A stretch of DNA of 32,000 nt from Acaryochloris marina MBIC11017 (GCF_000018105.1 NC_009930.1:1-32000); one strand, 5' to 3'. Positions 7,347 through 30,165 are shown, numbered from the stretch's first letter. A program made the numbers and translations. The notes: generated by a model from the sequence alone, not told the origin.

Positions 7347-9210
7347 GGGGTAATTGAAGGGTTGACACTGTTGGCGAATTCCAAGAAGTCACGCTGGTAA
7401 TGGCTGAAGTATCCTCTTGAAAAGAGATACACGGGTTTTTGCTAGTGGAACATCATTAAACCAAGCGTCTAAGCGGACAAAATTGAGAGCAATGGCACAG
7501 AAAACATTCTGTAGATGGCTCTTCGCTAACCCGATATACCTTGACTGGCGCATGCCAAATCGCCGTATTCCCTGTGAATGGGTACTCTCAACACCAGCCC
7601 GCAGGCTATATTTTTCCTTGAACTCAGTCGTTCGTTGCACCTGACGCCGTTCGTTAAGGGCCTGATGCAATTCACGGGGACGAAAGGTTAGCTCTCTAGG
7701 CTGGGTCTTTGATTTCGTACATTGAGATCGTACGGGACAACTTCGACAAGTTGTCCCTAGGAACCGTGCTCGAATGACATCCTTTCCATGAATATCCTGT
7801 CCAGGCAACCACTTTGTACTGGAGTGACCTTGAGGACAGACAACCTTCTGTTGGTCCCAGTTAATTTGGAAGACGCTGGCATCAAACCCATTCCCTGCCT
7901 TTGCCTGCCAGCTGTGGTTTTGACGCACGGGGCCAACAAGGTCCATGTCATATTCTGCTTCACTATTCACTAAATGCTCAGCAGAAAGATAGCCTCCATC
8001 TAGCAAATGCTCTTTAGGCAACAATCGTTTCTCCGCTAAGGCAAGGTGAATGGGTTCAACAACTTGATCATCTGGGACGGTTGCACGGGTAGTATGCACA
8101 TGAGTAATGAGGCGGGGATTATCGTGATCACACACTTCAGTGAAATGAACTTTATAGCCCACCCAATCCATACTTCTTTTATTGCTGTAGCGGGCTTCTA
8201 TGTCGTAAGGAGAATGAATGGATACATCCGAAGGGGGCATATCCTTCACTTTTCGCCATTCGACTGTGCCGTCTGCATTGGGCGGGTAGAATCGCTGGAG
8301 CCAGACTTGCCGCAAAGTTTCTACAGCTGGTAGATGCTTTAACCAGGGTGGTGAGCTTGGGTGGTATATCGCATCAAGCAGTGCCAAACCATCTTGACCG
8401 ATAGTACTGCCCAGGGCTTTGCGTTCGCTATCGGGTTTAGGCAAGCGATAATTCTCTATTCGTCGACCATAGCGATCAAACCAGTCTTCTTGCATGTGTT
8501 CGCTTAACCACTGTGGATCTGCAACGACTAAACTGTTGAGAGCAGCCCGAAAGGTTTCACCAAATAACTCCAACCGATTGAGGGTTCGGATCGCCGCTAA
8601 GATATGAGTCGCATCCGTTCGTTGTTGATGGTGTTCTTTGAGAAACCCTTTGGATTGAAGGTGCTCAAGAAAGATATCAAATAGCCGTTGTTCCTTGCCT
8701 CCCTCGATTAGACGCTTGCGGAATTCACTCAAAATAGAATAATTAAATCCAGAGTCTTTCAGCGGTAGGCTCAGGGCATACTTCCAATCTATCCGGGCTC
8801 GAACGGCATCAGCCGCTTGACGGTCTGAAAGATTCTCAAGAAATTGCATGATGCAAACTAACACAAGCTGCCAGGGGGATAAAGCTGGCTGTCCTTTCTT
8901 TGGAAACAGATCAGCAAAATCGTGATCGTGATAGATAATGCCAAGTTCATCACGTAGTTGCATATACAGGTTGCCATTAGGAAAGGCAGCCCTAGCTACT
9001 TCAAGGGTTTCACTAGGGATGTCCAACAAGTCTGTCGGGCGCATAGATATAACAATGAGCCTCCAGAGTGAGCGTGATTGATTTTAAGTTTTAGCAGTAA
9101 CATACCTCAATCCACGAAAGGCTCGCTGCATCAATGGTTAGAAACTTTTTACAGCCGTCTTAGATCATTGCGGAATATTTCGCCAACAGTGTCGACCCTT
9201 CAATTACCCC
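7347..9210 (-). mobile_element. IS1182-family insertion sequence, apparently complete
   Basis: 32-bp terminal inverted repeats GGGGTAATTGAAGGGTTGACACTGTTGGCGAA at 7347-7378 and its reverse complement at 9179-9210 (1 mismatch). They enclose a single 551-aa transposase ORF. Confidence 0.85.
7389..9044 (-). CDS. IS1182-family DDE transposase
   Basis: N-terminal LSPWQLVLVCIMQFLENLSDRQAADAVRARIDWKYALSL and C-terminal GMRQSRYIGLAKSHLQNVFCAIALNFVRL are typical of this transposase family as I recall it. Confidence 0.88.
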   Translation of the reverse strand: MRPTDLLDIPSETLEVARAAFPNGNLYMQLRDELGIIYHDHDFADLFPKKGQPALSPWQLVLVCIMQFLENLSDRQAADAVRARIDWKYALSLPLKDSGFNYSILSEFRKRLIEGGKEQRLFDIFLEHLQSKGFLKEHHQQRTDATHILAAIRTLNRLELFGETFRAALNSLVVADPQWLSEHMQEDWFDRYGRRIENYRLPKPDSERKALGSTIGQDGLALLDAIYHPSSPPWLKHLPAVETLRQVWLQRFYPPNADGTVEWRKVKDMPPSDVSIHSPYDIEARYSNKRSMDWVGYKVHFTEVCDHDNPRLITHVHTTRATVPDDQVVEPIHLALAEKRLLPKEHLLDGGYLSAEHLVNSEAEYDMDLVGPVRQNHSWQAKAGNGFDASVFQINWDQQKVVCPQGHSSTKWLPGQDIHGKDVIRARFLGTTCRSCPVRSQCTKSKTQPRELTFRPRELHQALNERRQVQRTTEFKEKYSLRAGVESTHSQGIRRFGMRQSRYIGLAKSHLQNVFCAIALNFVRLDAWFNDVPLAKTRVSLFKRILQPLPA

Positions 9211-9680: not shown

Positions 9681-10739
9681 GGCTTTGTTGCATGAATCGC
9701 GTAAAGGCTAGATGAATTGCCTCTCCTCGTTATTCTTAAGCTTCAACCCAAACAGTCTCGGGTTTGGCGATCTGAATCATTCGATTGAGTGCCGCACACT
9801 GCAGGAGTAACTCTGTGGCTTGATTATCAAAGTTACGGGAACGTACCTGACCCCCAAAGATAGTTTTGAAGCGAAACATCGTCGTTTCAGCTAGAGACCG
9901 CCGATGATAGTGGGCTTGTTTTTTCCACCTCTTTCGTCCCTGTTTTCGGATGGCTCTGAGATTTTGATCTCGTGGATGGGGTGGAGCATTGCAGTTTCCA
10001 TGTTGCCAAATTTTGGCATTCTTCCTTGGGGGAATTGCAGCTGTGGCATTGCGCTCCATGAGGGCATCATAGCAATGACTTTGGTCATAGGCTCCGTCAG
10101 CAGAGACCTGTTCAATCTCATCGTCGATGCCTTCAAGGAGATCTTCAAACACTTCACCATCCTGAACGTCATTGGTTGTCACGACACCCGTGAGAATTTC
10201 TCCAGTGGACTCATCAACACTCAAGTGAAGTTTACGCCACGTCCGACGTTTGCTCACACCATGTTGCCTGGTTTTCCACTCTCCTTCACCATAGACTTTG
10301 ACCCCTGTGCTATCGATAACGACGTGAATGGCACCTTGCTTAGGTATAACGGGCAATGAAATCGATAGCTGACCTTTCCGCCGAGAGACGGTGCTGTGGT
10401 CACAAACGGGAAGCTCAATTCCCATCAACTCAAACAATGAATTTAGAAATCCTTCGGTTTGACGCCCTGCTAAACCATAGATACATTTGACGGTCTCGAA
10501 GGTGGAGATTGCTGTATCGCTATAGGTCAGAGAGGCTCCCCGCTTTTGTCTCGGTGTGGTTTCTAGCCAATGAACGATAGCTGATTGTTCGAGCCAGAAG
10601 GTCACACTTCCCCGCTGTTTGAGACCAGCGTTATACTCGGACCAGTTGCGGATTTGGTAACTCATGGGCTAGCGGTTTTTGGTGGTACATAAACTCTAGC
10701 CCGCGCCTAATCCGCAGCACCTATTCATGCAACAACGCC
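9681..10739 (-). mobile_element. IS5-family, IS903-group insertion sequence (1059 bp)
   Basis: Terminal IRs GGCTTTGTTGCATGAAT (9681-9697) and the reverse complement of ATTCATGCAACAACGCC (10723-10739), with 1 mismatch. 9-bp direct duplication of the target. One 309-aa transposase. Size, 9-bp duplication and the GGCTTTGTTG end match my recollection of IS903. Confidence 0.9.
9736..10665 (-). CDS. IS903-group (IS5 family) DDE transposase
   Basis: 309 aa. N-terminal NWSEYNAGLKQRGSVTFWL signature. Lies between the IRs. Confidence 0.9.
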   Translation of the reverse strand: MSYQIRNWSEYNAGLKQRGSVTFWLEQSAIVHWLETTPRQKRGASLTYSDTAISTFETVKCIYGLAGRQTEGFLNSLFELMGIELPVCDHSTVSRRKGQLSISLPVIPKQGAIHVVIDSTGVKVYGEGEWKTRQHGVSKRRTWRKLHLSVDESTGEILTGVVTTNDVQDGEVFEDLLEGIDDEIEQVSADGAYDQSHCYDALMERNATAAIPPRKNAKIWQHGNCNAPPHPRDQNLRAIRKQGRKRWKKQAHYHRRSLAETTMFRFKTIFGGQVRSRNFDNQATELLLQCAALNRMIQIAKPETVWVEA

Positions 10740-12761: not shown

Positions 12762-12780
12762 ATTGATATCCTGCTATCAG

Positions 12781-13165
12781 TAAATACAGCTATACAGTTT
12801 TAAATCTTTCAAGCTAACCGCAAATCAATATAGCAACATTCTTGCTTGCAGTAACCTTTTTCTTAAAGTTAGCAATCAAACTATACAGATATCTGTACCT
12901 ATATCTATCTGTAAATACTGTTAACTGTATAACAGCAAAGCTTTATCATACTTAGCCCAAGCCTATAGTCGTAATGCACTAGCTACTATGAAAAGCTGTA
13001 GATACAGCTATATTGTTTTATGGATATCTGTTAATTCATAAATCATTAAATACTGTTAACTGTATAAAAATAAATCCTCATTACACTTAGTCCAACCTAA
13101 AAATTTGTACTTGTATCATTACTTTAGTAGCTGCATATACAGTTATACTGTTTTAATGCTCTACA
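12781..13165. promoter_or_regulatory. centromere/operator-like iteron field upstream of parA
   Basis: At least 10 copies of TACAG/CTGTA half-sites. Examples: ATACAGCTATACAG at 12784, TATACAG-ATAT-CTGTA at 12882-12897, CTGTAGATACAG at about 12996, TATACAGTTATACTG at about 13135. A 21-bp exact repeat TAAATACTGTTAACTGTATAA occurs at 12912-12932 and 13048-13068. Confidence 0.6.
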
Positions 13166-13435
13166 GCTTTTTGATATAAGAAGTTACTAAGAAACTCATG
13201 ATGTATGTCGAACATCCCAAAAAGAGTAAATTTGATAAAACATCAGCAGAACTTATCATTTACAGATTTTCAACGAGTTTCCAGTACTTCCAGCCCTGAA
13301 CCAATCATAAGTTCAACTTAATCGAAGGGTCTTTAATGACCTCTACCTCCAAAACCCCCTAAAATCGTTCTACAACTGACTACAAAATAATTGTTTTGTT
13401 ATCAGTTTGGTGTGAGTGGAATCCTCAAGGTGAAA

Positions 13436-14008
13436 ATGGTCATTTGCCGCCAACGAAACGAACACTATCGCAGTCGGGAGTATCTGACCCTGGCGGAAGT
13501 GAATCGGCTGATCATGGCCGCCGAGTTGAGGGGTCGTCACCCGATCCGAGATAAGGCGTTGTTACTGCTGATGTTTCGTCATGGGTTGCGAGTCAGTGAA
13601 GCAATATCCCTGAGATGGGATGCGGTGATGCTGGAGTTGAAGGCCATTGGGATTACTCGACTCAAGGGGTCCGTCAGTGGGACGCATCCATTGCAGGCTG
13701 ACGAGGTGGAGTCATTGAGGGACTTACGCGCTGAAGGTTACCCAGATCCGTATCTGTTTGTCGGGGAGCGGGGTGGACATCTCAAGCGCCATGCGGTGAC
13801 GAGTCTCATCAATCGCTGTGCGGAGTTGGCGCAATTAGGGATTAAGTGCCATCCCCATATGCTGCGCCATAGCTGTGGGTATCACCTGGCGAATCAGGGG
13901 TTGGATACGAGGTTGATCCAAGACTGGCTGGGACATCGGAATATCCAGCATACGGTAACGTATACGATGCTGAATCCGAAGCGGTTTGGGGAGATTCAGT
14001 GGGGGTGA
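13436..14008 (+). CDS. small tyrosine site-specific recombinase (FimB/FimE- or Xer-like)
   Basis: ORF track 13391..14008, with an ATG at 13436. Catalytic signature: RHGLRVSE (Arg), HMLRHSCG (His-x-x-Arg), WLGHRNIQ (His), TVTYT (Tyr). Confidence 0.88.
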   Translation: MVICRQRNEHYRSREYLTLAEVNRLIMAAELRGRHPIRDKALLLLMFRHGLRVSEAISLRWDAVMLELKAIGITRLKGSVSGTHPLQADEVESLRDLRAEGYPDPYLFVGERGGHLKRHAVTSLINRCAELAQLGIKCHPHMLRHSCGYHLANQGLDTRLIQDWLGHRNIQHTVTYTMLNPKRFGEIQWG

Positions 14009-14166
14009 GTGATTAGTATGGGAAGTGGGGGACAGTGTAGCTGTTTAGCAGATAATGGTAGATGAAGTTCAGCTTATATTCCGTCATGCAGATCTGGAAA
14101 CGGCGATGTGAATTGACGATAATCGCAGAAATCTCCAGAGTAAGGGTCATGGTGTTACTGTCGGGG

Positions 14167-14488
14167 TAATTGGCTTTTTCTTATCAATGGACCGAAAATG
14201 GTCGCTAAAGTGTTCAGAATACTAAACGGTGATTAAGTTTTGGCTGTCCCCCAACTGACCATATCTGGGACACAAGAATTCTACATCTATTGATCTATAT
14301 AGCTTTCAGAAACTTTCCTAAAACTGTCCAAGCATAGAAAGTGGGACAGTGCTGTTTTCATGAATTTTCAAAGTTTTGAATCTATTGGGTATTCTATAAG
14401 TATTTATACTTATATCTATGATCTATATGGGGAAAGGATTTCAGCCTTATCAACCAAAACGGGTCCATTGATATGAAATGGCCTAATT
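14167..14488. repeat. imperfect inverted repeat pair flanking about 265 bp
   Basis: TAATTGGCTTTTTCTTATCAATGGACCG (14167-14194) versus the reverse complement of CGGGTCCATTGATATGAAATGGCCTAATT (14460-14488). The core TATCAATGGACC is perfect. Confidence 0.7.
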
Positions 14489-14547
14489 GGGTGAAGGTGA
14501 TTTGGTTTGATCGCAAGATCTATTTTCTTTTGTTTGAGGAGTTATAG

Positions 14548-14720
14548 ATGCAATGTGACAAAAAGGAACATTATGTGATTATTAGTAATTAATAAAATCA
14601 GGTAATATAAACAGTTTATTGCTTTTTTCAGGATAATTTGGGAATGCAATGTGATAAAAAGGAACATTATATGATTATTAGTAATAAATAAAATTAGGGA
14701 AATTAACTGTTTTATACTTG
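14548..14720 (+). repeat. tandem direct repeat (about 96-bp period), each copy starting with a 14-15 codon micro-ORF
   Basis: ATGCAATGTGACAAAAAGGAACATTATGTGATTATTAGTAATTAA at 14548 and ATGCAATGTGATAAAAAGGAACATTATATGATTATTAGTAATAAATAA at 14644. Confidence 0.75.
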
Positions 14721-14839
14721 CCAGGAATTGTTTAGATTAAGGATGAAATCTAATTAATGTTAAGAAATAGTATTTATTTATTGTGCGTTAAATATGGTTA
14801 ATGTATCCTTTAAGAATACAGGTGATGTTTTATTGATGC

Positions 14840-14976
14840 GGCACTGGTCTCTTAGCAGGATCTATACGTTCACAACCCTTTTGGACTATGGACTTCAAAG
14901 TAAATATAAATAGAGAACTCAAATGCTTATTAGATAGGCGTTATAGAAATCTAGATCCTCTTAAGACACCAGTGCC
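14840..14976. repeat. 25-bp inverted repeat (22/25) with 87-bp spacer
   Basis: GGCACTGGTCTCTTAGCAGGATCTA (14840-14864) versus the reverse complement of TAGATCCTCTTAAGACACCAGTGCC (14952-14976). Confidence 0.75.
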
Positions 14977-15190
14977 ATTGATGCTGATTAAAGTTTCATC
15001 GTACTTAGAATAGAAAGGAATTGATATATAAATCTATCTATATCTATCCTTATTACTACAATCCCAATAACTCTAAATCTAGTTAATTTTGTTTTCAACT
15101 AGTATTTTTGATTCTCAAAATAAATTGAATCAGGTATTTTTGGTGATGTGAATGAAGTTGAGAAAGAATAAATTCAATTATCTCATTCAT

Positions 15191-15223
15191 CTTAAGCATA
15201 GATTACCCTAATCTATGCTTAAG
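15191..15223. repeat. perfect 15-bp stem / 3-nt loop palindrome
   Basis: CTTAAGCATAGATTA-CCC-TAATCTATGCTTAAG. No adjacent T-run. Confidence 0.85.
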
Positions 15224-15557
15224 TTCCTTATCATCTCTCTCCTCAATTAAGAACTGCTCACACTTGATAAAGGTGCCATTGAATAGCTTTATTTAGTCAA
15301 AAAGCTATTCAAAGCTCGAATGCTAGATTTATTAAAGACTGCTTGAATATTAATACAAAACTTGTGTTTTTATCTAAGATTATTTGTTGAGTAATAAATA
15401 TTTCAGATAAAAATATGTTTATTAAGGTGTAAGTCTTATAATCTGAAAAAAGCTTATAAAAGATAGCTATCTTGTGTTTTAAATATTCTATGAGATTTTC
15501 ATGGTAGATGTTCTCAATTCATTGATTTAGAGGAACTAGTTTTTTTAGTTGTTGAAA

Positions 15558-16618
15558 ATGAAGTATAGGTCTCTTATGTACTTACGAAAGTTTAATCATT
15601 TTATCTATGTTATGCTCGCAGTATCTTTACTAGCGAGTTGTAAAGGCCTAAAACAAGCTGAAGAATTTGGAAAGCTCCATGAAAAACTTGAAACTAATTT
15701 CGCATCTTTAAGCAATGATATATATTTATCCTGCTTAAGAAAAGCGAGCTACCCTGATGAAGGATATTTTCCAGCAATAATAAGTTTTAGATCTGATGAA
15801 GATAAAAAGTGCAAGGAAAAATTTCTCCCTGTATACAAAAAAAGTAAATGATGCAAATTTGACATTAATTAATTACGTAAAAGGCATAGGAACGCTAGCT
15901 ACAAATAAGCCAGGTTTGTTTCGACCTAATATTGATAAGCTTAAGACATCATTGGGAACTCTAAATACGAGTTTACCTACTATAGGTGTCTCCTCTCTTG
16001 ATTCAAGTACTATTGATTCGGGCTTTAATCTTGTCAATCTGTTAGCAGATATATTTACGTTTAACTTTCGTAAGAAAAATAGTAAAGACTACGGTTATTT
16101 GCTCTAACAAAGATATTCAGGCTTTTGTACCAGCATTGAAAAAAATTGTTAATGTTGGTTATATACCGCTGCTTGAATCTGAGAAAAGAATAGTTAATTT
16201 ATACTTTGAGAATCATACACCAGATTCAGGTGTAACTAATACCTTATCTGATTTTATAGCTTCTCATCAACTCACTGAAAGCTATAATACTGCTCTCAAT
16301 AAAACCATAATGCGTAAGATTGCAGCTGAGTCATATATTAAAATCCTAGATGAAACAGCTGATTCTCACCAAAAGTTAACGAATATTTTTCTTAAGAAAA
16401 AATCAATTAATGATCCTAAAATTGAAAAAAAATGCAAGAAGTTTTTTGAAGAAGGAAAAGAATTAAGAAAGGATAAAGAAAAAAAGACTAAACAGGTTAG
16501 TGATGAACTAGAAATTGAGTCTTTATCTAAGGAAGAAGTCGAACAAGTACAACAAGTACTCTCTCAGTACTATAGAAAAATAAAGCCACTTGCTAAGAAT
16601 ATCAATAATGCCTTCTAA
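15558..16618 (+). pseudogene. putative lipoprotein gene whose frame is broken twice at A-runs (tracked as 15549..15851, 15796..16107, 16136..16618)
   Basis: N-terminus MKYRSLMYLRKFNHFIYVMLAVSLLASC has a lipobox L-A-S-C (15628-15642). The three ORFs occupy successive frames. Skipping one A in A7 (15837-15843) and one in A5 (16075-16079) gives one continuous ORF of about 350 codons. The third ORF has no ATG or RBS of its own. Confidence 0.55.
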
Positions 16619-16705
16619 CTTGACTGTATCAATTCTGATTATCTTCTCTTACTTAAGAAAGCTGGCTGTAATTACTGAGAAATTTAGATTGAAGGACTTA
16701 ATGGC

Positions 16706-17104
16706 ATGACAAACTTGAATACCGAAGACTTAATCAAATGCCGAGATCATTTGAACGAAATTATCGAGAACTATATGGTAAAAAGGAGAAATATTTTCCC
16801 TGGCTCAATAACGAGGGATCAATTTCTTCTATTCGGCTCAAAAATAAGAATATTGATTGGAATTTCAGATGAAATGACCCTTATGATTGTAGAAGGGCTA
16901 CTTGTAAGTGCAAACGAAAATCAGCAGCGAATTGATGATGCTGTTCTAGTTATCAATAACCGAATTGAAAGATTGAATCAAATTAATCAAGCTATTGAAG
17001 ACTTTGCGAATGTAATTAATTTATTTTCGGGGATTCTTGGAGGTATAGTAAGTGGATCTATACCTGATTTACAGAAACTCCTTGAACCATTTTTTGATGG
17101 ATAA
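16706..17104 (+). CDS. hypothetical helical protein
   Basis: 132-aa ORF with GAAGGA upstream. A long ORF in stop-rich, very AT-rich DNA. No family recognised. Confidence 0.6.
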   Translation: MTNLNTEDLIKCRDHLNEIIENYMVKRRNIFPGSITRDQFLLFGSKIRILIGISDEMTLMIVEGLLVSANENQQRIDDAVLVINNRIERLNQINQAIEDFANVINLFSGILGGIVSGSIPDLQKLLEPFFDG

Positions 17105-17406
17105 GTAACTAGAGAATATCTAACTTCTTTATATAAATGCTCTAGTGGTAATTTTTTAAACTGAAAGAGCATATGCAATTCTTAAAATATAAGTCAATTC
17201 TCTTACTAAATTAGTTGGAGAAATCCTGGAATTTCTGTTTCGAGAAGAAAGATCTAAAATTTTAGAATTCATGCCTTCAAAAAAATAGCTGAAAGAATTT
17301 TCGGTAGTAAACCAATTAAAGAAGGTGAATATCCTGAATTTTGTTTGGTTATACAGAATATTCTGCAAGTACTATATTGAGTTTTTTCCCAGCAAGGAGC
17401 TATATT

Positions 17407-17733
17407 ATGCCGATATTATCAGTCACAACTGATCAGAATGGTTTCTTCATGAAAACTGAAGAATATGATCCGCCAGGTCCATTTCCGTTAAATGTTAATC
17501 TTTCAGCAAAACTTCTCTCCCCAGATCAAACTAAAGTATCTAGTAGTCTTGATATTGATGCGGTAGGAGGAGAAACAAATCAGAAACGTGATTTTCAAAT
17601 TAATACAGGTGAAGAAATATCTTTAGGAGAGTGGAGAATTGATGGTGGTAATAATATTATTATTGTAAACGGGAAAACAACTCCAGTACGTGCAAACACT
17701 GAAATAGAAATTGAGCTAAATGTTTCACTATAA
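17407..17733 (+). CDS. hypothetical small beta-rich protein
   Basis: ORF track 17341..17733. The ATG at 17407 is preceded by AGGAG. 108 aa (MPILSVTTDQNG..). Confidence 0.6.
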   Translation: MPILSVTTDQNGFFMKTEEYDPPGPFPLNVNLSAKLLSPDQTKVSSSLDIDAVGGETNQKRDFQINTGEEISLGEWRIDGGNNIIIVNGKTTPVRANTEIEIELNVSL

Positions 17734-17880
17734 TTTTAAGGATTGGTAGTGATTTAAAGGTAGTGAAACTCTTCAAGAGTTATCAGATATGCGTTATGGT
17801 CAAGGCTGCCTCATTCTAGTCCAGCATGGAATAGTTTTACTTGTAATCGCTAACGAGTTCGATTGCTTTTTGAAACATAT

Positions 17881-17915
17881 ATCATAAAGTAGGAAATACC
17901 TTCCTACTTTATGAT
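17881..17915. repeat. perfect 15-bp stem / 5-nt loop hairpin
   Basis: ATCATAAAGTAGGAA-ATACC-TTCCTACTTTATGAT. No flanking U-tract on either strand. Confidence 0.85.
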
Positions 17916-18026
17916 AGTGGTCAATAAACTGAGGTCTGCAGTGATATAACTATTGTCGGTTACAATATCTCTATCTTTTTTTAGTTTAATAGACCTATTT
18001 ATTCTGGCTAGAAGTGAACCAATAAA

Positions 18027-18764
18027 ATGACCAATAATAAACTTAGTAGATATTTAGTCTCTCAAATAGCAAAAAAAATCCCTAAAGCAGTATTTCTAAA
18101 AGAGACAAATAGAAAGATTATTTCACTGACAATTGATGATATACCTGCTCAAAATGAAGATGATAAACAATCGGCTCGGAAGATTTTAGAAGCCATAGAA
18201 GCACATAATGAATCGTTTTCAACAACTGTAAGTGCAACTTTCTTTATAACCACTGATCATGTCAAGTATGAAAGTGATAAGAGTAAATTAGATTTAGATA
18301 TACTTAAAGAAATTAGTGATAAAGGTCATGAAATCGGCAATCATGGAAAAATTGATCGACGTCATGCAAGTCTATCCAAAATAGAATTTGAAACTGAATT
18401 TCTTGAAGCACATCAATTTTTGTCACAGCATATTAGTCAACCCGTTTGTTGGTTCCGACCTGGACAGGGTTTCTTTAACAAATCTATGTTTGATACATTA
18501 ATAACAGTAGGGCAGAGCTTAGGTTATCAAGAAAAATTTGCTTTGGCATCAATGATTCCGTTTGATACACTGAAATTTTTAGATGATCCAGACTTCACAT
18601 TAAAGAATATAGGTCGCTTTACTTTTCCTGGCTCTATTCTACTTTTACACGGTGGCTTTAGTCATCAGGCTATTAATACTGTAGATGTCTTGAATAAGCT
18701 GTTACCACGACTGCATGAACACAATTATCAAGTTGTTTCCTTGTCCAAACTAATGCTTTCATAA
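18027..18764 (+). CDS. polysaccharide deacetylase-like (CE4 / NodB homology) protein
   Basis: TIDDIP (Asp-Asp at 18135-18140), GHEIGNHG, WFRPGQGFF and ILLLHGG correspond to CE4 motifs 1, 2, 3 and 5. No signal peptide seen. Confidence 0.78.
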   Translation: MTNNKLSRYLVSQIAKKIPKAVFLKETNRKIISLTIDDIPAQNEDDKQSARKILEAIEAHNESFSTTVSATFFITTDHVKYESDKSKLDLDILKEISDKGHEIGNHGKIDRRHASLSKIEFETEFLEAHQFLSQHISQPVCWFRPGQGFFNKSMFDTLITVGQSLGYQEKFALASMIPFDTLKFLDDPDFTLKNIGRFTFPGSILLLHGGFSHQAINTVDVLNKLLPRLHEHNYQVVSLSKLMLS

Positions 18765-18780
18765 ATTGGAAGTTGTGATT

Positions 18781-19665
18781 ATGGCCTCAGCACGAGAAAA
18801 TCTAGAATCAGCGATCGAAAGTATTAGAAATTCTTCCAATGAATTTGCATTCCAATTTCGCATTATTAGATTCCCCAATGCATTAATAGGTATAGCAGAA
18901 GGCGATTCATGGTTTGATTATCCACCATCTTGGATCGAAGATCCTGAAAAAGGTGATCTAATTAATCAATTAAATACTTTTAAGCTTGGGGACGAGAGAA
19001 AATTTAATATCTTACGGATAGCTGAAGCTGGTGATACATTGGAGAACATGGTATTCGGCAACGATCTAGATAAGCTAGGTGAACCCAGGAAAAATCAGTT
19101 CCTAAGAACTTTAGCATTAGTCAGGAGATATAAACCTAAGTTTGTCTTGTTTTCTGGAGGAGGTAATGATGTTGTCGGGGATGGATTAGAAGCTTTCATC
19201 AATCACAATATGCTAAAAGGTAAATATGGACTGCTGCGAGATAGTTATGTAGACTATATTTTAGAAGAAGTATTTCGAGAAATTTTTGAAACGTTTATTA
19301 GTGAAATACTTGATATTGATGACAACATACAAATACTCTTGCATGGGTATGGTTATGCAATACCTGATGGAAAACCTGTGGTCGGTGATGAAAACTTTGG
19401 TTTTATTGGCCCATGGATGGCTCCCACCTTTGCAAGGAAGCGAATTGACTTTGAGGATGGTCAGAAAATCATTATAAAGTTGATCGATAAATTTAATATA
19501 TTACTCAAAACAATTGCGCATAATAATAAAAATAACGTGCATTATCTAGACTTGAGAGAAGTCATTCAACAAGATGACTGGGCTAATGAGCTTCATCTCA
19601 CCGTGACTGGCTATGAAAAAGTGGTTAAAGTTTATACGGACAAGCTCCTAGAAATCTTCCCCTAA
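18781..19665 (+). CDS. SGNH/GDSL-family hydrolase
   Basis: ORF track 18766..19665, with an ATG at 18781. Block I GDSWF (18901-18915) and block III GGGND (19156-19170). The C-terminal NELH sits where DxxH is expected. No signal peptide seen. Confidence 0.78.
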   Translation: MASARENLESAIESIRNSSNEFAFQFRIIRFPNALIGIAEGDSWFDYPPSWIEDPEKGDLINQLNTFKLGDERKFNILRIAEAGDTLENMVFGNDLDKLGEPRKNQFLRTLALVRRYKPKFVLFSGGGNDVVGDGLEAFINHNMLKGKYGLLRDSYVDYILEEVFREIFETFISEILDIDDNIQILLHGYGYAIPDGKPVVGDENFGFIGPWMAPTFARKRIDFEDGQKIIIKLIDKFNILLKTIAHNNKNNVHYLDLREVIQQDDWANELHLTVTGYEKVVKVYTDKLLEIFP

Positions 19666-19879
19666 TGAGCCATGATTTTGTTAGCGTTCATTAGATCTGT
19701 AATAAGTTAATCAGCGGTAATTTAAGCGCACTGCCCTCCATGTCGCAGTCATGCTATGAAAAATCTGTGAACATAAAAATCTTGGTTTCAGATTACTTTT
19801 TTGGGAATTTAAAATAGCCCTGCACAGACCTTAAATACCCTCGGTAAACTTAGCGATGCCTTTTCCTTTGAGTCATTGA

Positions 19880-20195
19880 CTACACCACGTCATAAACACC
19901 GTGAATCAGTTCCTCAAGCATCAGTGCCGCCTCAATATGCTTAAGGGCATCGATCTGCCGATGTTTGGACCTTAGCGTCGTCGCCTCAGCAATCAAATAG
20001 GCGACACAATCACGGAAACATTGGGCCTTTTGCCAGTCAAAGAGAATCCGTTCAATCTCTGGTTCTAACTGTGGCCAGACCAGTGGATTGAAAAGTTTCT
20101 AGGCACCACTAAGGGTTAAATTCTGGGATTGCATCAGGGTTCATGCCGTGGCTACTGTCATGATTGCTACGGAGGAATAGACGACATTGATGATG
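19880..20195 (-). pseudogene. 5'-truncated, nonsense-containing paralogue of the 26601..26978 gene
   Basis: The minus-strand translation IINVVYSSVAIMTVATA*TLMQSQNLTLSGA*KLFNPLVWPQLEPEIERILFDWQKAQCFRDCVAYLIAEATTLRSKHRQIDALKHIEAALMLEELIHGVYDVV* aligns colinearly with PIVNAAYSPMAIVTIATAKSLMQSQELMLSGAQKLFNPAVWPLLEPEIQRIPFDRQKAQCFRDCVAYLMAEATTLRSERRQNDALKHIEAALMLEALIHGGYDD. There are two in-frame stops. Confidence 0.8.
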
Positions 20196-20410
20196 CTGTG
20201 ACGAGTCTCATCAATCGTTATGCTGAGTTGGCGCAACTGGGAATAAAGTGTCATCCCCATATGCTGCGCCATAGCTGTGGGTATCACCTGGCGAATCAGG
20301 GGTTGGATACGAGGTTGATTCAAGATTGGTTGGGACATCGCAATATCCAGCATACGGTGACCTATACGATGCTGAATCCGAAGCGGTTTGGGGAGATTCA
20401 GTGGGGGTAA
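20193..20410 (+). pseudogene. 3' fragment of a second, diverged tyrosine recombinase gene
   Basis: Colinear with 13791-14008. The encoded 71 aa are identical except C->Y. About 15-16 nt differences by hand alignment. No 5' two-thirds of the gene. Confidence 0.88.
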
Positions 20411-20449
20411 CGGATGAGTAGGTGAAGGGGGCGATTGGTAAGTTGTTGT

Positions 20450-20556
20450 GGGAGCGTAATATATCCCTAGTCTGAAATCATTTAGTCAAAAAATCATAGG
20501 AATTTTCCAGATAATGGATAATTATCTAGAGTAGACTAGGTATATATTACGCTCCC
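20450..20556. repeat. 23-bp inverted repeat (22/23) with 61-bp spacer
   Basis: GGGAGCGTAATATATCCCTAGTC (20450-20472) versus the reverse complement of GACTAGGTATATATTACGCTCCC (20534-20556). Confidence 0.85.
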
Positions 20557-20931
20557 TCTGTGATTGGATTCTCTCTAGTTGTAAGAAGTCAATTTAATAG
20601 CGTACTTAACCTTATTGAGAAAGATATCTGTCTCTCTCTGGAAACTGACACGGTATCCTTCCCTGATAATTTAAAGTCATACCCGAGGTTAGTTTTATGC
20701 TGAAGAAAAGAGACGCAGGTTGAGTGGTAGTGAGGACAATCCATGTAAAGCAGACAGAGCTTAGCTTCGGGTAAGCATTAAGCCTATCAGATTTGCGGAC
20801 GTTAATCAATTTTGGCTACTCAAGACTGATAGATTTATTTTTTCTGATCGGTCGCTAACTTGTAAATGCTGGAAACTCAAACCACTATAATCTTCAAACC
20901 TAAAACATTCTAATGCACAACGAATTACTTT

Positions 20932-23652
20932 TTATTGTAATTGGTTTTTAATTTCTTCAGAAATACAAAAATTATATTTTTCTATAACGAAACTATCACT
21001 TTCGTCAGATTTACATAAAGAGTCAGAGTCAAGATCATTATCTGGTTCTGGAATTTGTGTATCTATTGACATTCTAGTATTTTTTGATAGCAGCCAACCT
21101 AACGGTAAAGTTGCTCTTTCTCCAATATAATTATCTAAATATATTGGTATAAATCGTGTATTATATATGATTTTCATATTTGATTCATTTTTATTCTTTT
21201 TTATATTTGAAACAGCTAATGGATGAGTGTTAAGGTCATCTTCTGCTTGCTCAATAATACTATTAGCACGTGAATTTCGAACATTGACTACTGTGCGCAA
21301 TGGAGAAAGTATTTCATTCAAACCCTGATGACTGGCATCAGAAAATTTTCTTGTATCAGGTGAATCAACAAGTGCAATATTTATAAGACTAATTCTCAGA
21401 ACTTTTTCTTTAGATTTTTTAACTGTTTTTGGATTATAAATCTGAGTATCTTCAAGGATTTCATCAATAATATCTCTTGCAGTAGCTACACCTGAATTAT
21501 CAAAATAACCTCCGTCTACAAGTCGGCTTTTACTGATACGTTTTGTAGCTGAGGTTTCATCTTTAACGTAATGTTTAAACCATCCAGCAGGAGTGAATAT
21601 AGGAAATCTCGCACTAATGAATGTAGCAGTACTAAGAGGAATATTAGGATAAACTAAATCAAAATCAAAAAAAGAATTTAACCCATTTGTTGAAAATTTA
21701 AAAGGACTAAAAACTACTCGTTCACCCGTTTCAACGTTTGTAGTATTTAAAACTAATGCAGGATTTTCCTCACATAAATTCCAAAATTCCTTGTAAGAAT
21801 TTGAAAAATAGTTTTCATAGTTCTTCATTTCAGTACTGGCATTAAAAGTATTATCCCAATATTCTTCTAATGCAAGCTCTAGACCACGTACTCTATCCCA
21901 TGTACTAATAGGTATTGGGATAAATCTTTGTAGTAAATCAGGAAACAGAGCTAAAGAAAATAATGGCGATAGAAAGTCATTACCTAATATTTTTTCTACA
22001 TATGGAGATATTTTTTTGTGAACATTTATAGTTGTTGGGCTATTAATATTTTTATTCTGTTGCTGTGCAAACTCTTTAACTAATGCTGAATACACCGCTG
22101 AGCCTAAACTACCACCTGATACAGAACTAATTGCAAAGACATGGCTTGAAAACTTTCCATCACTTGTATCATGTAGCTTTGCTAACGTAGATGCTGCATG
22201 GTATGCAGCATATATTCCACCACCCTGTGCAGAAACAATATAAACAGGATAAGCTATATTTTTTTCGATATACTTATTTTTATCATTTCGTTTTTCTATC
22301 CAACTATCAAATGCATCTGGTATGCTTAGAACAATATCTTTCTTTTTAGAATTTTCAGTTTTATTTTGTTCTTTAATGCCATATATATGTCTTATTTGAT
22401 GATTATCATTCCAGTTAAACTGACTTGATATTAGAGCTAGTATAATTATGAGTGTTATAGTAGGTATTTTTTCTCCAGGCAATATATTTATATATCTAAA
22501 ATCCTCTTTTGGTGTTGAGTAACCCCAGTAGTAAATATTAGAAAAAATAACTGAAAAACTTCCTAGACAAAGAGCTGTGATACTTATTGGACCAATGAAA
22601 ACGATGAATTTTACTGAAGAGTATTTAGGAACAAGCAAAAGAAATACTAATAAAGTTATTACAATACGTGATATAAGAAGCAGATTGACCTCAATTAATT
22701 TCTTTTTCTTATCGACCTCACTAGAAATACATTTAATCTTGTTTTTATTGAACAGATATAGGAAAATATTAAAAATTAAGCATGTTATAAATACAAATAA
22801 AGATTGAAAAGAATAACTGCCAGATGTGTTAGCAATTGTGGGCATAGTGAAAAATATGAAACAGATTAGAGCTGGTGTGATCACCAAAAATTCTGTAACT
22901 GGATTAAATAAGATTTGATTCTCATACTTTTCTAAAGATTTTTTTTTAACTTCGTTCTTGTTAAGCAAGAGATTTTCTTTTATGATGTTAATAATATCAC
23001 GTCTATAGAAAATTATCTGATTAAGACAAAAAAGAATAACCCCAGTCATTGCAAGCCATATCAATGCAAATAGATCAGAATCACTTAGCTCTCCAATATC
23101 TATATATAACTTATATCTATTAACTTTATAAATACCCGTTAAGAGACCATATGTTGGTAATAGACCAATTATTCTTGGAATATATTTTAATGCTGAATAT
23201 TGAGCATGTAATTTGTTTAAATGTAGCTTTTGTTCAGGTTCTACAGTCTCCTCCTTTTCAAACCATTTTGAATAAGTTAATGACTCACCATTAGTATTCT
23301 TGATTTTATTAAAAACATATTTTTCAGAAAGTAAACGCCCTGACATACAAACAAGAATAGAAAGTAACAGCACAAAAAATGTGCTTATTATGACCTTAAG
23401 ATGCTCTTGATCATATATATAAGATCTATAAATTTCAAGACTTTGGTCGATATAGCCAAAAATAATTAAACTTAATATTCCTATAATTGTAGGAACCCAT
23501 AAATGAAATGATATTTTGCGCAAATATATAAAAATAATAGAAATAACAATTATCCAGCAAGCGATATTAATAGTGAGGAGATAAATTACTAGTAAAGATA
23601 ACAATAGGAACGAGATTGAAGACAATGTCTTATTATTTTTTGTTGATTCCAT
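20932..23652 (-). CDS. polytopic-membrane patatin-like phospholipase (paralogue of 1189..3489)
   Basis: 906-aa ORF. About 470 aa of hydrophobic helices, then SAQGGGIYA (GGG at 22217-22225), GGSLG (22102-22116) and DGGYFDNSG (DGG at 21508-21516). Further shared motifs with the first copy. Confidence 0.85.
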   Translation of the reverse strand: MESTKNNKTLSSISFLLLSLLVIYLLTINIACWIIVISIIFIYLRKISFHLWVPTIIGILSLIIFGYIDQSLEIYRSYIYDQEHLKVIISTFFVLLLSILVCMSGRLLSEKYVFNKIKNTNGESLTYSKWFEKEETVEPEQKLHLNKLHAQYSALKYIPRIIGLLPTYGLLTGIYKVNRYKLYIDIGELSDSDLFALIWLAMTGVILFCLNQIIFYRRDIINIIKENLLLNKNEVKKKSLEKYENQILFNPVTEFLVITPALICFIFFTMPTIANTSGSYSFQSLFVFITCLIFNIFLYLFNKNKIKCISSEVDKKKKLIEVNLLLISRIVITLLVFLLLVPKYSSVKFIVFIGPISITALCLGSFSVIFSNIYYWGYSTPKEDFRYINILPGEKIPTITLIIILALISSQFNWNDNHQIRHIYGIKEQNKTENSKKKDIVLSIPDAFDSWIEKRNDKNKYIEKNIAYPVYIVSAQGGGIYAAYHAASTLAKLHDTSDGKFSSHVFAISSVSGGSLGSAVYSALVKEFAQQQNKNINSPTTINVHKKISPYVEKILGNDFLSPLFSLALFPDLLQRFIPIPISTWDRVRGLELALEEYWDNTFNASTEMKNYENYFSNSYKEFWNLCEENPALVLNTTNVETGERVVFSPFKFSTNGLNSFFDFDLVYPNIPLSTATFISARFPIFTPAGWFKHYVKDETSATKRISKSRLVDGGYFDNSGVATARDIIDEILEDTQIYNPKTVKKSKEKVLRISLINIALVDSPDTRKFSDASHQGLNEILSPLRTVVNVRNSRANSIIEQAEDDLNTHPLAVSNIKKNKNESNMKIIYNTRFIPIYLDNYIGERATLPLGWLLSKNTRMSIDTQIPEPDNDLDSDSLCKSDESDSFVIEKYNFCISEEIKNQLQ

Positions 23653-24607
23653 AGAAGTAATATAAGTATTTTTGTTTGCTCAAAATTGATTTAGATAGTA
23701 TTTCTATTTAGATATAGAGAATAAATATATCATAAATGATACACTTAAAGTACTTAAACTTTCCATCTAGAATAATAATAAGATATTTCTAGATTATTTA
23801 TTATTTTTGCTGAGCAATTAAGTTTTTTTTGTGATGCTAAATACTTTATAACTAAACTATGCATTTTTCAGTTTAAGATTTTGATACTGTATATCTTTGA
23901 GTTCAAAAAATTGAATAACTTTCAAGAAGTTAGATGTAGAAATTTGCACGAGAATATGTATCTTAAAATACTTAAATCTTCATCTAGACTGGCATACTAA
24001 ATATCTCTATCAGGTCATCAGTAGTGAAGAGTAAAAAACGATGCTGAGAATTTTTCAGACTCATATGTGATGCAGAGAATATTTGAAAATTAAAATGACT
24101 TGTGAGTAAAGATCATGAGCATATACTTCCCACGTCGAAATCGGTAAGTGACATTATCAAGGGGTAAAAACAAAAAGCAACATGACTTCAACAGGTGTTA
24201 CAGGAGTATGTGAAACGATATTGTTGGAAAAATTTATTGGTCATTGGTTGTGAAGTCTGGAGCAAGGGTTATAAAAGTGAACTAAGGTGTAAGAATATTC
24301 CAATCTTTAGAATTAAATAGATACGTTGCCTAGTCTTAGTTTTGGAGGTCTACAATGGTCACTTACCACACAGTTTAAGGCCCTTGAGTAGCAATTGAAC
24401 AGGAACGTACGCTATGGCTGAAAGCTATATATATAGTAGATTTCAGAGGCTGTATTTTTTACTTTAGAAACTGTACCATTTAGACCTTAGGTTAATTGGT
24501 ACAGAAAAACGGAACGGAATATCAAGGGTTTCAGGCCCCTTCTGGTTGAGAGGTTTAATTTGGTACAGAAAATTTGGAAGCTTAGCGTACGTTTCTGTTC
24601 CGATACT

Positions 24608-24757: not shown

Positions 24758-25030
24758 TCAATCGGCTTGTCTGGGATAGTCAATCTCGTCACAGAACTCG
24801 GACCAATTCTCTTGCTGAAACTCAGAGGCACGTATAGAAGTTTCTTTGGCTTGTACCTGAATGAAATGGTGATCAATTAATTCTTGGATAAACGTTGAAT
24901 GGCCGCCTGAAGGTACACTGTCATCCAGCACTGGAAACTCATAGGAAAGCCGTAGTTCAGCCACAGTATCCTTCTTGGCTAATCTCAGCAGTTCTAGCTG
25001 TTGTTGAGTTAGGGAAGGAATCTGAGTCAT
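24758..25030 (-). CDS. hypothetical protein
   Basis: 90-aa ORF. Its ATG overlaps the stop of the upstream gene (ATGA at 25027-25030), suggesting translational coupling. Confidence 0.55.
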   Translation of the reverse strand: MTQIPSLTQQQLELLRLAKKDTVAELRLSYEFPVLDDSVPSGGHSTFIQELIDHHFIQVQAKETSIRASEFQQENWSEFCDEIDYPRQAD

Positions 25031-25350
25031 GGTTGACCGTTTTGCAACAGTTGCTCAATCCGATCCAAGCGTTGGTTGACGCCTTCAAATTGAGTATTCA
25101 TATCTTTACGCAACAGTTCAATCTCAATCCTGTTGTCAGCAATCTTGTCCAGTAATCGGCTCTCACTAGTGGGGACGATAGCAGCAACACTGGTATTGAT
25201 CAGGAAGAACAGACCACCTATCAGAAAACCAATGACAGCCAATATGGGCAGCAAGTCTTTGGATAGATCCACCAAAGAAGAAAAACGGGTTGGGGTAGTG
25301 TCTTGGTTATCTGAGGTCATTGTGCTGTCTGTGTCCTCAAACGCAAACAA
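25027..25350 (-). CDS. hypothetical single-pass membrane protein with coiled-coil tail
   Basis: 107 aa. Hydrophobic segment LLPILAVIGFLIGGLFFLINTSVAAIV, then heptad-like RIEIELLRKDMNTQFEGVNQRLDRIEQLL. Confidence 0.6.
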   Translation of the reverse strand: MFAFEDTDSTMTSDNQDTTPTRFSSLVDLSKDLLPILAVIGFLIGGLFFLINTSVAAIVPTSESRLLDKIADNRIEIELLRKDMNTQFEGVNQRLDRIEQLLQNGQP

Positions 25351-25380
25351 TGGAAATTTGTTTATATCGTATTCTGAGGG

Positions 25381-25641
25381 CTATTGACTTGGCCCCTCCC
25401 AATGAACAGCGTTACATAGTTCTTCTAAGGTGACGTTCAGCATTTCACAAAGTTTTTTTACCTGGCAGGGGTTAAGAGTGGGGATTGACCGCCCATTCTC
25501 CCAATTTCCAATCGACTGTGGTTTTACTCCTAGCTCATTAGCTAATTGTGTCTGACTTAGTTCAGCCCTCTTTCGCTTCAAAAGAAACCATTCAGAGAAA
25601 TCGATATCCACACTTCGACTCAGTAGCAAACATGAGTCCAT
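25381..25641 (-). CDS. XRE-family helix-turn-helix transcriptional regulator
   Basis: LKRKRAELSQTQLANELGVKPQSIGNWENGRSIP is a classic HTH_3 / Cro-cI pattern. Confidence 0.85.
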   Translation of the reverse strand: MDSCLLLSRSVDIDFSEWFLLKRKRAELSQTQLANELGVKPQSIGNWENGRSIPTLNPCQVKKLCEMLNVTLEELCNAVHWEGPSQ

Positions 25642-25830
25642 AATAGTCCCTGCTTTTGTATATCTTGGTTCATTTACATTGTAGAGGCACTATAAAAGAT
25701 TAGCAATAAATAACAAATAATTTGATTAATCCCAATATATTTGGTATTATTGTTTCATACAACAAAAGGCACCCGGTCGCCTGGACAGTTCCCGGATGCC
25801 CTAGTTAAAACCCCGTAAAGGAAATTAACT

Positions 25831-26142
25831 ATGAATACTGTACTCGAAACGCCCACCACCGTTAACGAGCTGGAGAAGTGGATCGACGCTCAGGTCACAG
25901 ATCCCCTCCATCCCGAAATGGTGATGGTGGAACTTCAGATTGAACAATACCCCGGTGTTCGTGAAGGGGGCGACTTGTTTGAAGTCTTCGCACCCGTCAT
26001 CTGTAAACCTGGACTACTCAGACCTCGCTTAGAGGCTTGGGTCAAAGCCACCTATGGGAATGACCACTGGCTAGCCAACTGGCGTACCGTTCCCTCCACT
26101 CGCCAAATTGACGCTGAGAACGATTACGAAGACGAATTCTAG
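25831..26142 (+). CDS. hypothetical protein
   Basis: 103-aa ORF, first in the plus-strand string divergent from the XRE gene. AAGGAAA upstream. Confidence 0.6.
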   Translation: MNTVLETPTTVNELEKWIDAQVTDPLHPEMVMVELQIEQYPGVREGGDLFEVFAPVICKPGLLRPRLEAWVKATYGNDHWLANWRTVPSTRQIDAENDYEDEF

Positions 26143-26210
26143 GAATATCCTGGGGGCACCCTGCCCCCTTCCACGCCACATATACCCAGTCGCTACATAG
26201 GGTTAAAACA

Positions 26211-26537
26211 ATGAAACCGACTCCCAGAAACAAACTGGTTCCAATCGTTCAATTTACGACTCAAGTTGAGCTTGACTGTCAGCAAGTCGCAGCCCTCAAC
26301 CGCTTGGTCTTAGGCAGCACAGACCTCAGTGACGATCAGGCACTCAACCTCTGGCAAGCCCTCAATCCTTGGGTCATGGAATTCCAGCACTCCACCCCCA
26401 GAGATGTGTTTGCCTCATTGCGGTTTATCGCTCTTGCCAAGCCAGCAACGGAACCAGAACCCCTCTACCCCACTGATCTTTTGAACTCCGTAGGCTCAAA
26501 CATCGAAACCGATAGCCCAAGCTGCCTTTGTGCATGA
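26211..26537 (+). CDS. hypothetical protein
   Basis: 108-aa ORF, same strand string. Confidence 0.55.
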   Translation: MKPTPRNKLVPIVQFTTQVELDCQQVAALNRLVLGSTDLSDDQALNLWQALNPWVMEFQHSTPRDVFASLRFIALAKPATEPEPLYPTDLLNSVGSNIETDSPSCLCA

Positions 26538-26600
26538 GGGACCGCCTACTCTCCGTGTCGTTCCCCCATCAATCCCAACAATCCATACCTGGAGATAGCC

Positions 26601-26978
26601 ATGAAAGACCATCCCTGTCTTCCTGAATTCCCCTTGGATCCACCCATCGTCAATGCCGCTTATTCACCAATGGCAATTGTGACGATAGCCACGGCGAAGA
26701 GTCTGATGCAGTCTCAGGAATTAATGCTCAGTGGTGCTCAGAAACTGTTCAATCCAGCGGTCTGGCCCCTGCTTGAACCAGAGATTCAACGGATTCCCTT
26801 TGACCGTCAAAAGGCCCAGTGCTTCCGTGATTGTGTTGCCTATCTCATGGCCGAGGCCACGACCCTCAGATCCGAACGTCGTCAGAACGATGCCCTTAAG
26901 CATATTGAAGCCGCACTGATGCTAGAAGCCCTGATTCATGGCGGCTACGACGATCTGCCATTCATGTCCGAACAGTAA
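26601..26978 (+). CDS. conserved hypothetical protein (has a decayed paralogue at 19880-20195)
   Basis: 125-aa ORF with GGAGA upstream. The protein-level similarity of the second copy argues that this is a real gene. Confidence 0.7.
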   Translation: MKDHPCLPEFPLDPPIVNAAYSPMAIVTIATAKSLMQSQELMLSGAQKLFNPAVWPLLEPEIQRIPFDRQKAQCFRDCVAYLMAEATTLRSERRQNDALKHIEAALMLEALIHGGYDDLPFMSEQ

Positions 26979-27010
26979 AAAGCATCGCCAATCTTTTGCT
27001 GAATCAAGCG

Positions 27011-27391
27011 ATGCCTGCTGATGCCTTCATTGAAGAACCATTCAACGAGGTTATTCAAATGAATCCTACAACATTGCCAAAACCAGTACCCGACAACATC
27101 GAACTGCCCTCCTACGAACTTCACACGAGGCCCACTGCTGACAACTATCGCAAGTTCAATGTGTTCTATGGCTCTCGGCTGATCGGGTACGTCTACATCA
27201 ACTTTGTCCAGGGCCAATCCAACTTTGTCGGCACGACCCTCGATCATCGGTCCTTCGGTCCCTACTCCCGCAGGATGAAAGCGGCTGAAGCGGTCTTAGA
27301 AGCTTTCACAGCAGGACTCACCGGGCAACAGCGAATGATGGTGGCTCTTGCCAATGAGCTAGTCGAAAACATGATCGTCATTGCTGGGTGA
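27011..27391 (+). CDS. hypothetical protein
   Basis: ORF track 26996..27391 (TTG). First ATG at 27011. The stop overlaps the next start (GTGATG). Confidence 0.55.
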   Translation: MPADAFIEEPFNEVIQMNPTTLPKPVPDNIELPSYELHTRPTADNYRKFNVFYGSRLIGYVYINFVQGQSNFVGTTLDHRSFGPYSRRMKAAEAVLEAFTAGLTGQQRMMVALANELVENMIVIAG

Positions 27392-30124: not shown

Positions 30125-30165
30125 TCATTGCGAGTTGCAACCTGTGCAGCTTTACTTCGGACTAA

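Follow-up and report, generated by a model that had tools for sequence, protein, structure and literature searches.

The window analysed here is a stretch of 32,000 nucleotides (nt) from Acaryochloris marina MBIC11017 (GCF_000018105.1, NC_009930.1:1-32000), and its subject is a small tyrosine recombinase gene, termed rec or rec_A, the 3' end of which recurs about 6.4 kilobases (kb) downstream as a detached fragment. The locus is probably an ordinary rearrangement scar in a highly mosaic plasmid, in which two units, each a rec gene followed by cargo, lie in tandem and the rec gene of the second unit is truncated. The 6.4-kb 'cassette' between the two rec copies is best read as a by-product of this arrangement and not as a mobile element, and the repeats that bound it as something other than attachment (att) sites.

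The intact gene lies on the plus strand at 13436-14008 and encodes 190 amino acids (aa) from an ATG at 13436, the open reading frame (ORF) being open from a TTG at 13391. Repeat copy A (13791-14045, plus strand) comprises the last 71 rec codons, the stop codon and a degenerate 37-nt tail. Copy B (20193-20447, plus strand) is a 5'-truncated rec fragment with a tail, and its coding part, 20195-20410, corresponds to codons 135-205 of the 205-aa ORF. The pair was recovered by MAFFT alignment, by BLAST self-comparison and with a repeat finder. The repeat finder returned colinear direct repeats of 255 nt, 89% identical and spaced by 6402 nt, and BLAST matched 13791-14032 to 20193-20434 at 90.5% identity (E = 5e-92). 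The colinearity of 13791-14008 and 20193-20410, which the original prediction had noticed by eye, is real by all three routes. The similarity does continue past the stop codons, as had been claimed, although it reaches 37 nt (24 of 37 identical), somewhat beyond the 25 nt or so first proposed.

Over the 218 nt that include the stop codon, exact counting gave 16 differences between the copies, in agreement with an earlier hand estimate of 15-16 with one amino-acid change. Fifteen fall in the 213 coding nt, 14 of them synonymous and one nonsynonymous (TGT to TAT, Cys to Tyr), with no insertion or deletion; the sixteenth is the stop codon itself, TGA against TAA. By the Nei-Gojobori method the synonymous divergence (dS) was 0.39, the nonsynonymous divergence (dN) 0.006 and dN/dS 0.015. 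The original prediction had held that both copies were functional genes under purifying selection while they diverged, with no recent duplication behind them, and had proposed an exact alignment with dN/dS as the check. Once run, this check revealed no excess of nonsynonymous changes, and both statements stood, the dS lying within the range seen between alleles of different replicons.

That range was obtained by pairwise comparison. Among most rec alleles dS was 0.22-0.64 and dN/dS 0.01-0.13, the alleles of plasmids pREC1 and pREC4 alone being nearly identical to each other. The divergence between copies A and B therefore appears to be the ordinary divergence of working alleles on different replicons. 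Only five substitutions are unique to copy B and one of these is nonsynonymous, a Tyr variant found in none of the 12 other rec alleles (90% cluster of rec). As neutrality would give about 70% nonsynonymous changes, we infer that copy B belonged to a working gene until recently. Gene conversion between the copies was also considered. Identical runs in the repeats reach 68 nt, but those of 68 and 46 nt fall where all alleles vary little and are no evidence of it.

What remains of the second gene would not be sufficient for activity. Copy B matches positions 110-171 only of the Pfam profile PF00589; it retains the HxxR, His and Tyr catalytic motifs and lacks the N-terminal Arg and Lys, and since these two residues are missing, it would be unable to act as a recombinase on its own. 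The product of rec_A matches the same profile at positions 2-171 of 172 (E = 1e-39) and consists of the catalytic domain only. Its translation contains the motifs GLRVSE, HMLRH, LGH and TYT, so that the full catalytic domain of the tyrosine recombinase superfamily (Arg, Lys, His-x-x-Arg, His/Trp and Tyr motifs) is represented. The best NCBIfam families are those of the FimB/FimE-type 'tyrosine-type DNA invertase' (NF007370 and NF007371), for which the scores of 156 and 142 bits lie below the curated cut-offs of 221 and 222; rec is predicted to be FimB/FimE-like, yet by NCBI's criterion it is not a family member.

The left edge of copy B was informative about how the fragment arose. Immediately before it, on the minus strand at 19865-20195, lies a relic pseudogene, a paralogue of the ORF at 26601-26978, which is inverted and 5'-truncated (codons 16-125). 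Aligned with that resident ORF, positions 19888-20195 are 79% identical in nucleotides and 73% in amino acids. The relic lacks the first 15 codons and is interrupted by two in-frame stops as well as a premature TAG. Its end coincides with the start of copy B, the two overlapping by 3 nt, ATG, at 20193-20195, and the junction exhibits no dyad, no extended identity and no shared sequence beyond the ATG. Two 5'-truncated genes fused head-to-head in this way make an illegitimate junction and not an att site. Truncation, loss of essential residues, an illegitimate junction and divergence at the level of alleles, the features of a recombination scar, are all found in copy B.

The age of the relic could be judged against pREC4. 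The intact resident gene (26601-26978, plus strand) lies within a conserved block, delimited as 24759-30124 or as 24759-30507, that is common to the window and pREC4 and 91-96% identical between them, homology to pREC4 resuming at 24759. pREC4 also has a relic of this paralogue; it lies in the corresponding slot, between rec and the conserved block, and points the same way. The two relics have in common a derived premature TAG, the 'GGTGTAGTCAATG' stop, which is absent from three intact copies. Because this derived stop is common to pREC4, the relic appears to be old and resident in the slot, and older than the truncation of copy B. The junction would therefore have joined an old pseudogene to a rec allele that was then functional.

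The base composition of the region is consistent with this reading. The bracketed DNA had been described as an AT-rich cassette, which holds for cargo unit 1 (14046-19854, plus strand, 32.7% GC) but not for the last 340 nt before copy B (19855-20195), which are backbone-like in GC content. AT-rich DNA also continues on the far side, in cargo unit 2 (20557-24600, minus strand, 30.4% GC). The relic and copy B (19855-20449, 48.6% GC) thus form a 0.6-kb island, similar in composition to the backbone (49-50% GC), within a 10.5-kb AT-rich cargo region.

Related replicons were examined for the same arrangement. At the DNA level the best-matching plasmids were two from A. marina MBIC10699, pREC4 and pREC1, and one from Acaryochloris sp. 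'Moss Beach', pMB04. The closest relative is pREC4, with a rec module 91% identical to that of the window. The rec gene was gathered in 11 other contexts (pREC1, pREC4, several contigs of metagenome-assembled genomes and several Logan/ENA contigs), ten of which were comparable. In all ten, homology starts in the conserved region upstream of rec (13236-13435, plus strand), at 13236-13345 overall and at 13236-13242 in eight. It ends at the rec stop codon or within the tail of about 40 nt, and different genes follow each time. The protein is extremely constrained, being 94-100% identical in amino acids to alleles on other Acaryochloris replicons. The gene adjoins parA and a ribbon-helix-helix (RHH) gene, as it does in loci L019, L049, L052, L053 and L055.

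In locus L049 (1717-2304, against 13436-14005 of the window) the protein is 100% identical over 190 aa and the nucleotides only 91.5%, a constraint that is unusually strong for a plasmid recombinase.

Duplication of backbone segments has a precedent in the closest relative. pREC4 contains three copies or relics of the gene corresponding to ORF 26601-26978, one of them in a complete inverted second block, and looks like a composite of two related backbones. Because pREC4 holds these three copies or relics, complete inverted block included, duplicated or composite backbone segments are regarded as normal in these plasmids. The second block, with its helix-turn-helix, DUF6876 and orf26601-like genes, lies beside conjugation genes at 117124-135456 of pREC4 (L051) and is accompanied by a relic, L019 35803-36285 being listed with it. 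Most A. marina paralogues sit on separate replicons and experience strong purifying selection, in genomes that contain many transposable elements and several copies of recA (PMC11086944).

The simplest explanation would be as follows. The rec gene and about 200 nt upstream of it form a strongly conserved maintenance module beside the partition genes. On every related replicon the variable cargo starts directly behind the rec stop codon, and these plasmids would carry it in the slot that separates rec from the conserved block. Copy B would be what is left, a non-functional 3' third, of a second allele (rec_B) that had been a working gene while it evolved on a different but related backbone. This backbone would have been a plasmid, either co-resident or a donor, or else the second half of an earlier cointegrate. 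A second unit, composed of rec_B, its tail, a hairpin element and a patatin gene, would have entered the slot by import or as a cointegrate leftover, and an illegitimate, microhomology-level junction with the older relic would have removed the 5' two-thirds of rec_B. The resulting order would be rec_A, cargo 1, then truncated rec_B, tail, hairpin element and patatin cargo 2. The 255-nt repeats could still permit an occasional RecA-dependent deletion of 6.4 kb, with an intact hybrid rec as its product. The order of these events, the recency of the truncation and the role of rec in resolution are all inferred. Recombination between two plasmids, each with its own recombinase allele, had been offered in the original prediction as an alternative, and part of it is retained here: copy B adjoins a relic of a second backbone gene, and pREC4 has up to three copies of that gene. 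A simple homologous crossover would not truncate the gene, however, and at least one illegitimate junction is required.

The function of rec was considered from its surroundings. A dyad of 12-6-12 architecture, CTGACTACAAAA-TAATTG-TTTTGTTATCAG, is found at 13376-13405, about 30 nt upstream of the rec ATG; across nine alleles its arms are conserved and its 6-nt spacer varies between plasmids. Tyrosine-recombinase core sites are built in this way, and the dyad is a candidate recombination (resolution) site at which the variable spacer could make site-specific recombination plasmid-specific. The locus combines a recombinase linked to partition genes with a nearby dyad, as expected of multimer-resolution systems, and rec is most likely a multimer-resolution recombinase acting on 13376-13405. 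The dyad occurs only upstream of rec: fuzzy scans near 13791, 14046, 19855, 20193 and 20447 returned no similar dyad or half-site. No invertible segment with suitable inverted repeats was seen near rec, nor any sign of both orientations.

Other repeats are present in the same upstream region. An 11-nt inverted repeat, GAACTTATCAT and ATCATAAGTTC (13249-13259 and 13304-13314, arms 44 nt apart), is conserved in most alleles and marks the left edge of the rec module, homology between otherwise unrelated contexts starting about 10 nt to its left. A 17-nt inverted repeat (13233-13249 and 13565-13581) is partly conserved, but it is coding-constrained. Between parA and rec (12780-13155) there are 135-nt tandem units (12888-13020 and 13023-13155, about 70% identical), and a 23-nt motif, GTAAATACAGCTATACAGTTTTA, occurs three times; the units and the motif copies are candidate centromere (parS) or iteron repeats.

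The tail behind copy B (20411-20449, plus strand) connects rec with a second small recombinase family, int2 (for example pREC4 68298-68867). It is non-coding and homologous to the last 45 or so coding nt of int2, with TAG where int2 has a CAG codon. It also follows rec in locus L004 and in pREC4; in L053 and behind copy A it is degenerate. The window has one int2-like tail, and a 'tail 2' motif common to L005, pMB04 and pREC1 is absent from it; in other plasmids the two tail types recur after both recombinase families. The homology of the tail to int2 suggests that rec modules may once have displaced, or recombined with, int2 genes. The individual occurrences noted were 20411-20449, L004 2496-2538, L002 2185-2232 and L001 15954-16001, the end of int2 being TDEQVEGAIAKLVF followed by the stop. 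Directly after the tail lies a hairpin element of 107 nt (20450-20556) that resembles a miniature inverted-repeat transposable element, with 24-nt terminal inverted repeats complementary at 23 of 24 positions; it was present in no other fetched locus except a same-strain contig.

A plasmid with the empty site, or a donor, was sought in genome and metagenome contigs scanned with the rec protein, in PLSDB with the locus, the two rec halves, the relic, the SGNH protein and the patatin protein as queries (megablast, blastn and tblastn), and by exact-protein look-ups of the deacetylase, the patatin and five rec alleles. The deacetylase and patatin look-ups returned same-strain contigs only, with the same arrangement and breaking inside the repeat, and the other searches led to unrelated contexts. 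None of the ten related rec contexts runs beyond the tail into the sequence from 20448 onwards. The literature yielded no account of this locus, nor of rec fragments in plasmids of Acaryochloris.

Several points weigh against the tandem-unit explanation. Neither the empty-site plasmid nor a donor, that is, a full-length rec with the substitutions of copy B followed by the hairpin element and patatin gene, was found in the contigs, PLSDB or the exact-protein look-ups, and the allele closest to copy B (L056) is only 95% identical to it. A second rec 3' fragment, in pMB04, begins about 12 nt downstream of the breakpoint of copy B and could hint at a preferred break site; the two breakpoints differ and the left flanks of the two fragments are unrelated. 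The intact frame of copy B could reflect gene conversion or some selected role instead of recency. One genome does not suffice to fix the order of events, and it is only position and architecture that point to a resolution role of rec with the dyad as its site.

The main rival, though an unlikely one, is a Campbell-type insertion, in which a 6.4-kb circle, for instance a plasmid piece produced by excision or deletion, with the relic, a truncated rec 3' end and cargo 1 already on it, entered by one RecA-dependent crossover within the 255-nt homology, leaving an intact hybrid rec_A, the truncated copy B and then the resident's native hairpin and patatin DNA. One crossover with a 5'-truncated fragment of the gene would yield exactly this geometry, the longest identical run in the repeats, 68 nt, is enough for RecA, and the tail of copy B is the better conserved, 'native-looking' one that L004 and pREC4 also have. 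Against such an insertion, the relic was probably already in place and not brought in with the circle, its orthologue with the same derived stop being syntenic in pREC4, where copy B is missing. There is also no recombination break in rec_A within 13791-14045: difference positions against nine alleles gave no change point at 13791, the divergence from the pREC4 allele rises instead at about 13650, and a hybrid of the 5' part with copy B is no more coherent as an allele than the present rec_A. An earlier illegitimate junction would still be needed in the donor. A site-specific integrative element, the form in which the original prediction cast the locus (integration into the 3' end of the gene with supply of a replacement end), is very improbable. 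It would account for the order of intact gene, AT-rich DNA and displaced 3' fragment in direct orientation, and for bounding 255-nt direct repeats derived from the gene's 3' end, a geometry that routes without site specificity also give; the target gene itself encodes a recombinase, and the start of the pMB04 fragment lies about 12 nt away from that of copy B. When every ORF in 14046-20192 was scanned with Pfam, NCBIfam and PADLOC, the results were a deacetylase, an SGNH hydrolase and unknowns only, with no integrase, excisionase or transposase. The would-be arm at attR is a decayed backbone gene joined by 3-nt microhomology, nothing like the candidate rec dyad or another target-like site is found at either edge, AT-rich cargo lies on both sides of copy B, the two known fragments differ in breakpoint and left flank, and the change point in rec_A that a replaced end would leave is missing.

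Also highly improbable is an integron- or shufflon-like system in which rec stacks cargo after its own stop codon and rec 3' fragments serve as cassette boundaries. The DNA after the rec stop codon does differ in all 11 contexts, pREC1, pMB04 and the window each have a recombinase 3' fragment of the rec or the int2 type, and both recombinase families are followed by the same two tail types. However, among the Acaryochloris plasmids of PLSDB (about 14) only two rec 3' fragments are found (four places match the rec 3' end), and int2 ends, 13 in ten plasmids, number at most 1-3 per plasmid, the int2 'fragment' of pREC1 being a decayed whole pseudogene. No arrays and no conserved boundary motif were found, the window has a single fragment, and at a dS of around 0.4 unconstrained flanks would be unalignable, so sharp edges need no special mechanism. 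A related proposal, that the stop-codon-proximal end of rec is a preferred and possibly recombinase-assisted point of cargo capture, with the truncated ends near codons 135-139 in the window and in pMB04 as boundaries of stacked cargo units, is very doubtful; the pMB04 fragment and the int2-like tails leave a small probability that the ends of recombinase genes are preferred exchange points. The least credible explanation has the rec 3' end duplicated in situ, in tandem or as a segment, and diverging afterwards; the colinearity and direct orientation of the copies agree with it. A dead duplicate would gather nonsynonymous changes and indels, whereas 14 synonymous changes against one and no indel were observed; the divergence equals that between alleles of different replicons, and the relic beside copy B is only 79% identical to the resident gene. 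The substitution pattern led to its rejection.

Cargo unit 1, in which no integrase or transposase is present, begins with 1.5 kb of non-coding DNA with short repeats, followed by a 346-aa gene (15576-16618), ORFs at 16706-17104 and 17407-17733, a polysaccharide deacetylase (18027-18764) and an SGNH/GDSL hydrolase (18781-19665). Cargo unit 2 consists mainly of a 906-aa membrane patatin-like protein (20932-23652, minus strand). PADLOC assigned no defence system to the cargo, and Rfam, tRNA and promoter/terminator scans returned nothing relevant.

Some further features of the window were noted in passing. Relative to same-strain Logan contigs, an extra single A at 15835 and another at 16081 break the 346-aa ORF into three ORFs; these are either assembly errors or real frameshifts. 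On other plasmids, homologues of the SGNH/GDSL hydrolase carry the annotation trypsin-like peptidase or caspase-family protein, which hints at an effector module of a conflict system. The large AT-rich genes at 1189-3489 and 20932-23652 encode membrane-anchored proteins of 766 and 906 aa that are distant paralogues in opposite orientation (tblastx), the patatin-like domain being in the 906-aa protein. A NACHT-like NTPase (4909-7311) lies between AT-rich cargo genes. An insertion sequence at 7347-9210 has 32-nt terminal inverted repeats (7347-7378 and 9179-9210) around a 551-aa transposase, and a second transposase gene, IS5-like and of 309 aa, lies at 9736-10665. ARAGORN called a 91-nt tRNA-Arg(ACG) at 26438-26528 on the minus strand, inside the ORF at 26211-26537; the call has no Rfam support and is probably a false positive.

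Taken alone, the scar matters little, as one more in a plasmid family already known for duplication and mosaicism. Its wider interest lies in the slot between the rec module and the KilA-N/sigma-factor block, which appears to be an exchange place for conflict-type cargo (patatin-like, SGNH and NACHT), and in the suggestion that a maintenance gene common to co-resident plasmids is a landmark, and probably a substrate, of cargo exchange. The 12-6-12 dyad is offered as a testable candidate target site of the plasmid recombinase. Should the capture-point proposal be true, the plasmids would possess an integron-like platform with an attachment region inside or just after the recombinase gene.

The locus can be compared with several known systems. 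Genomic islands and prophages are said to occupy the 3' ends of tRNA or transfer-messenger RNA genes and to bring a replacement end, as reportedly set out by Williams in 2002. The likeness is in the intact gene, the foreign-looking DNA and the displaced 3' fragment as a direct repeat; unlike such islands, the window locus has neither an element integrase nor att architecture, its far 'arm' is a backbone pseudogene, and its repeat is 255 nt at 89% identity and not a near-identical att core. An integron or cassette array differs in that the window holds one fragment and no shared boundary motif was found in it.

Plasmid multimer-resolution and other small recombinase systems include Cre/loxP, ResD/rfsF, Rsd/crs, XerCD/cer and FimB/FimE. 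The resolution systems resemble the rec locus in the recombinase of about 190 aa with the catalytic domain only, beside parA and the RHH gene, and in the 12-6-12 dyad upstream. FimB/FimE-type enzymes give the best family matches of rec, as judged here from sequence, but differ in the score (156 against 221 bits) and in the invertible segment, of which none with suitable inverted repeats was seen beside rec.

In the classical Campbell model, DNA is inserted by a single crossover. Homology-facilitated illegitimate recombination was reportedly described by de Vries and Wackernagel in 2002. The locus is like both in its one homologous anchor and one microhomology junction (here the ATG), and in an intact gene and a 5'-truncated direct duplicate around acquired DNA, read here from one sequence. 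The mosaic or cointegrate-derived plasmids of multi-replicon A. marina genomes offer a further likeness: a diverged fragment of a maintenance gene beside other backbone relics, paralogues from different replicons under purifying selection, and variable, compositionally atypical cargo (PMC11086944).

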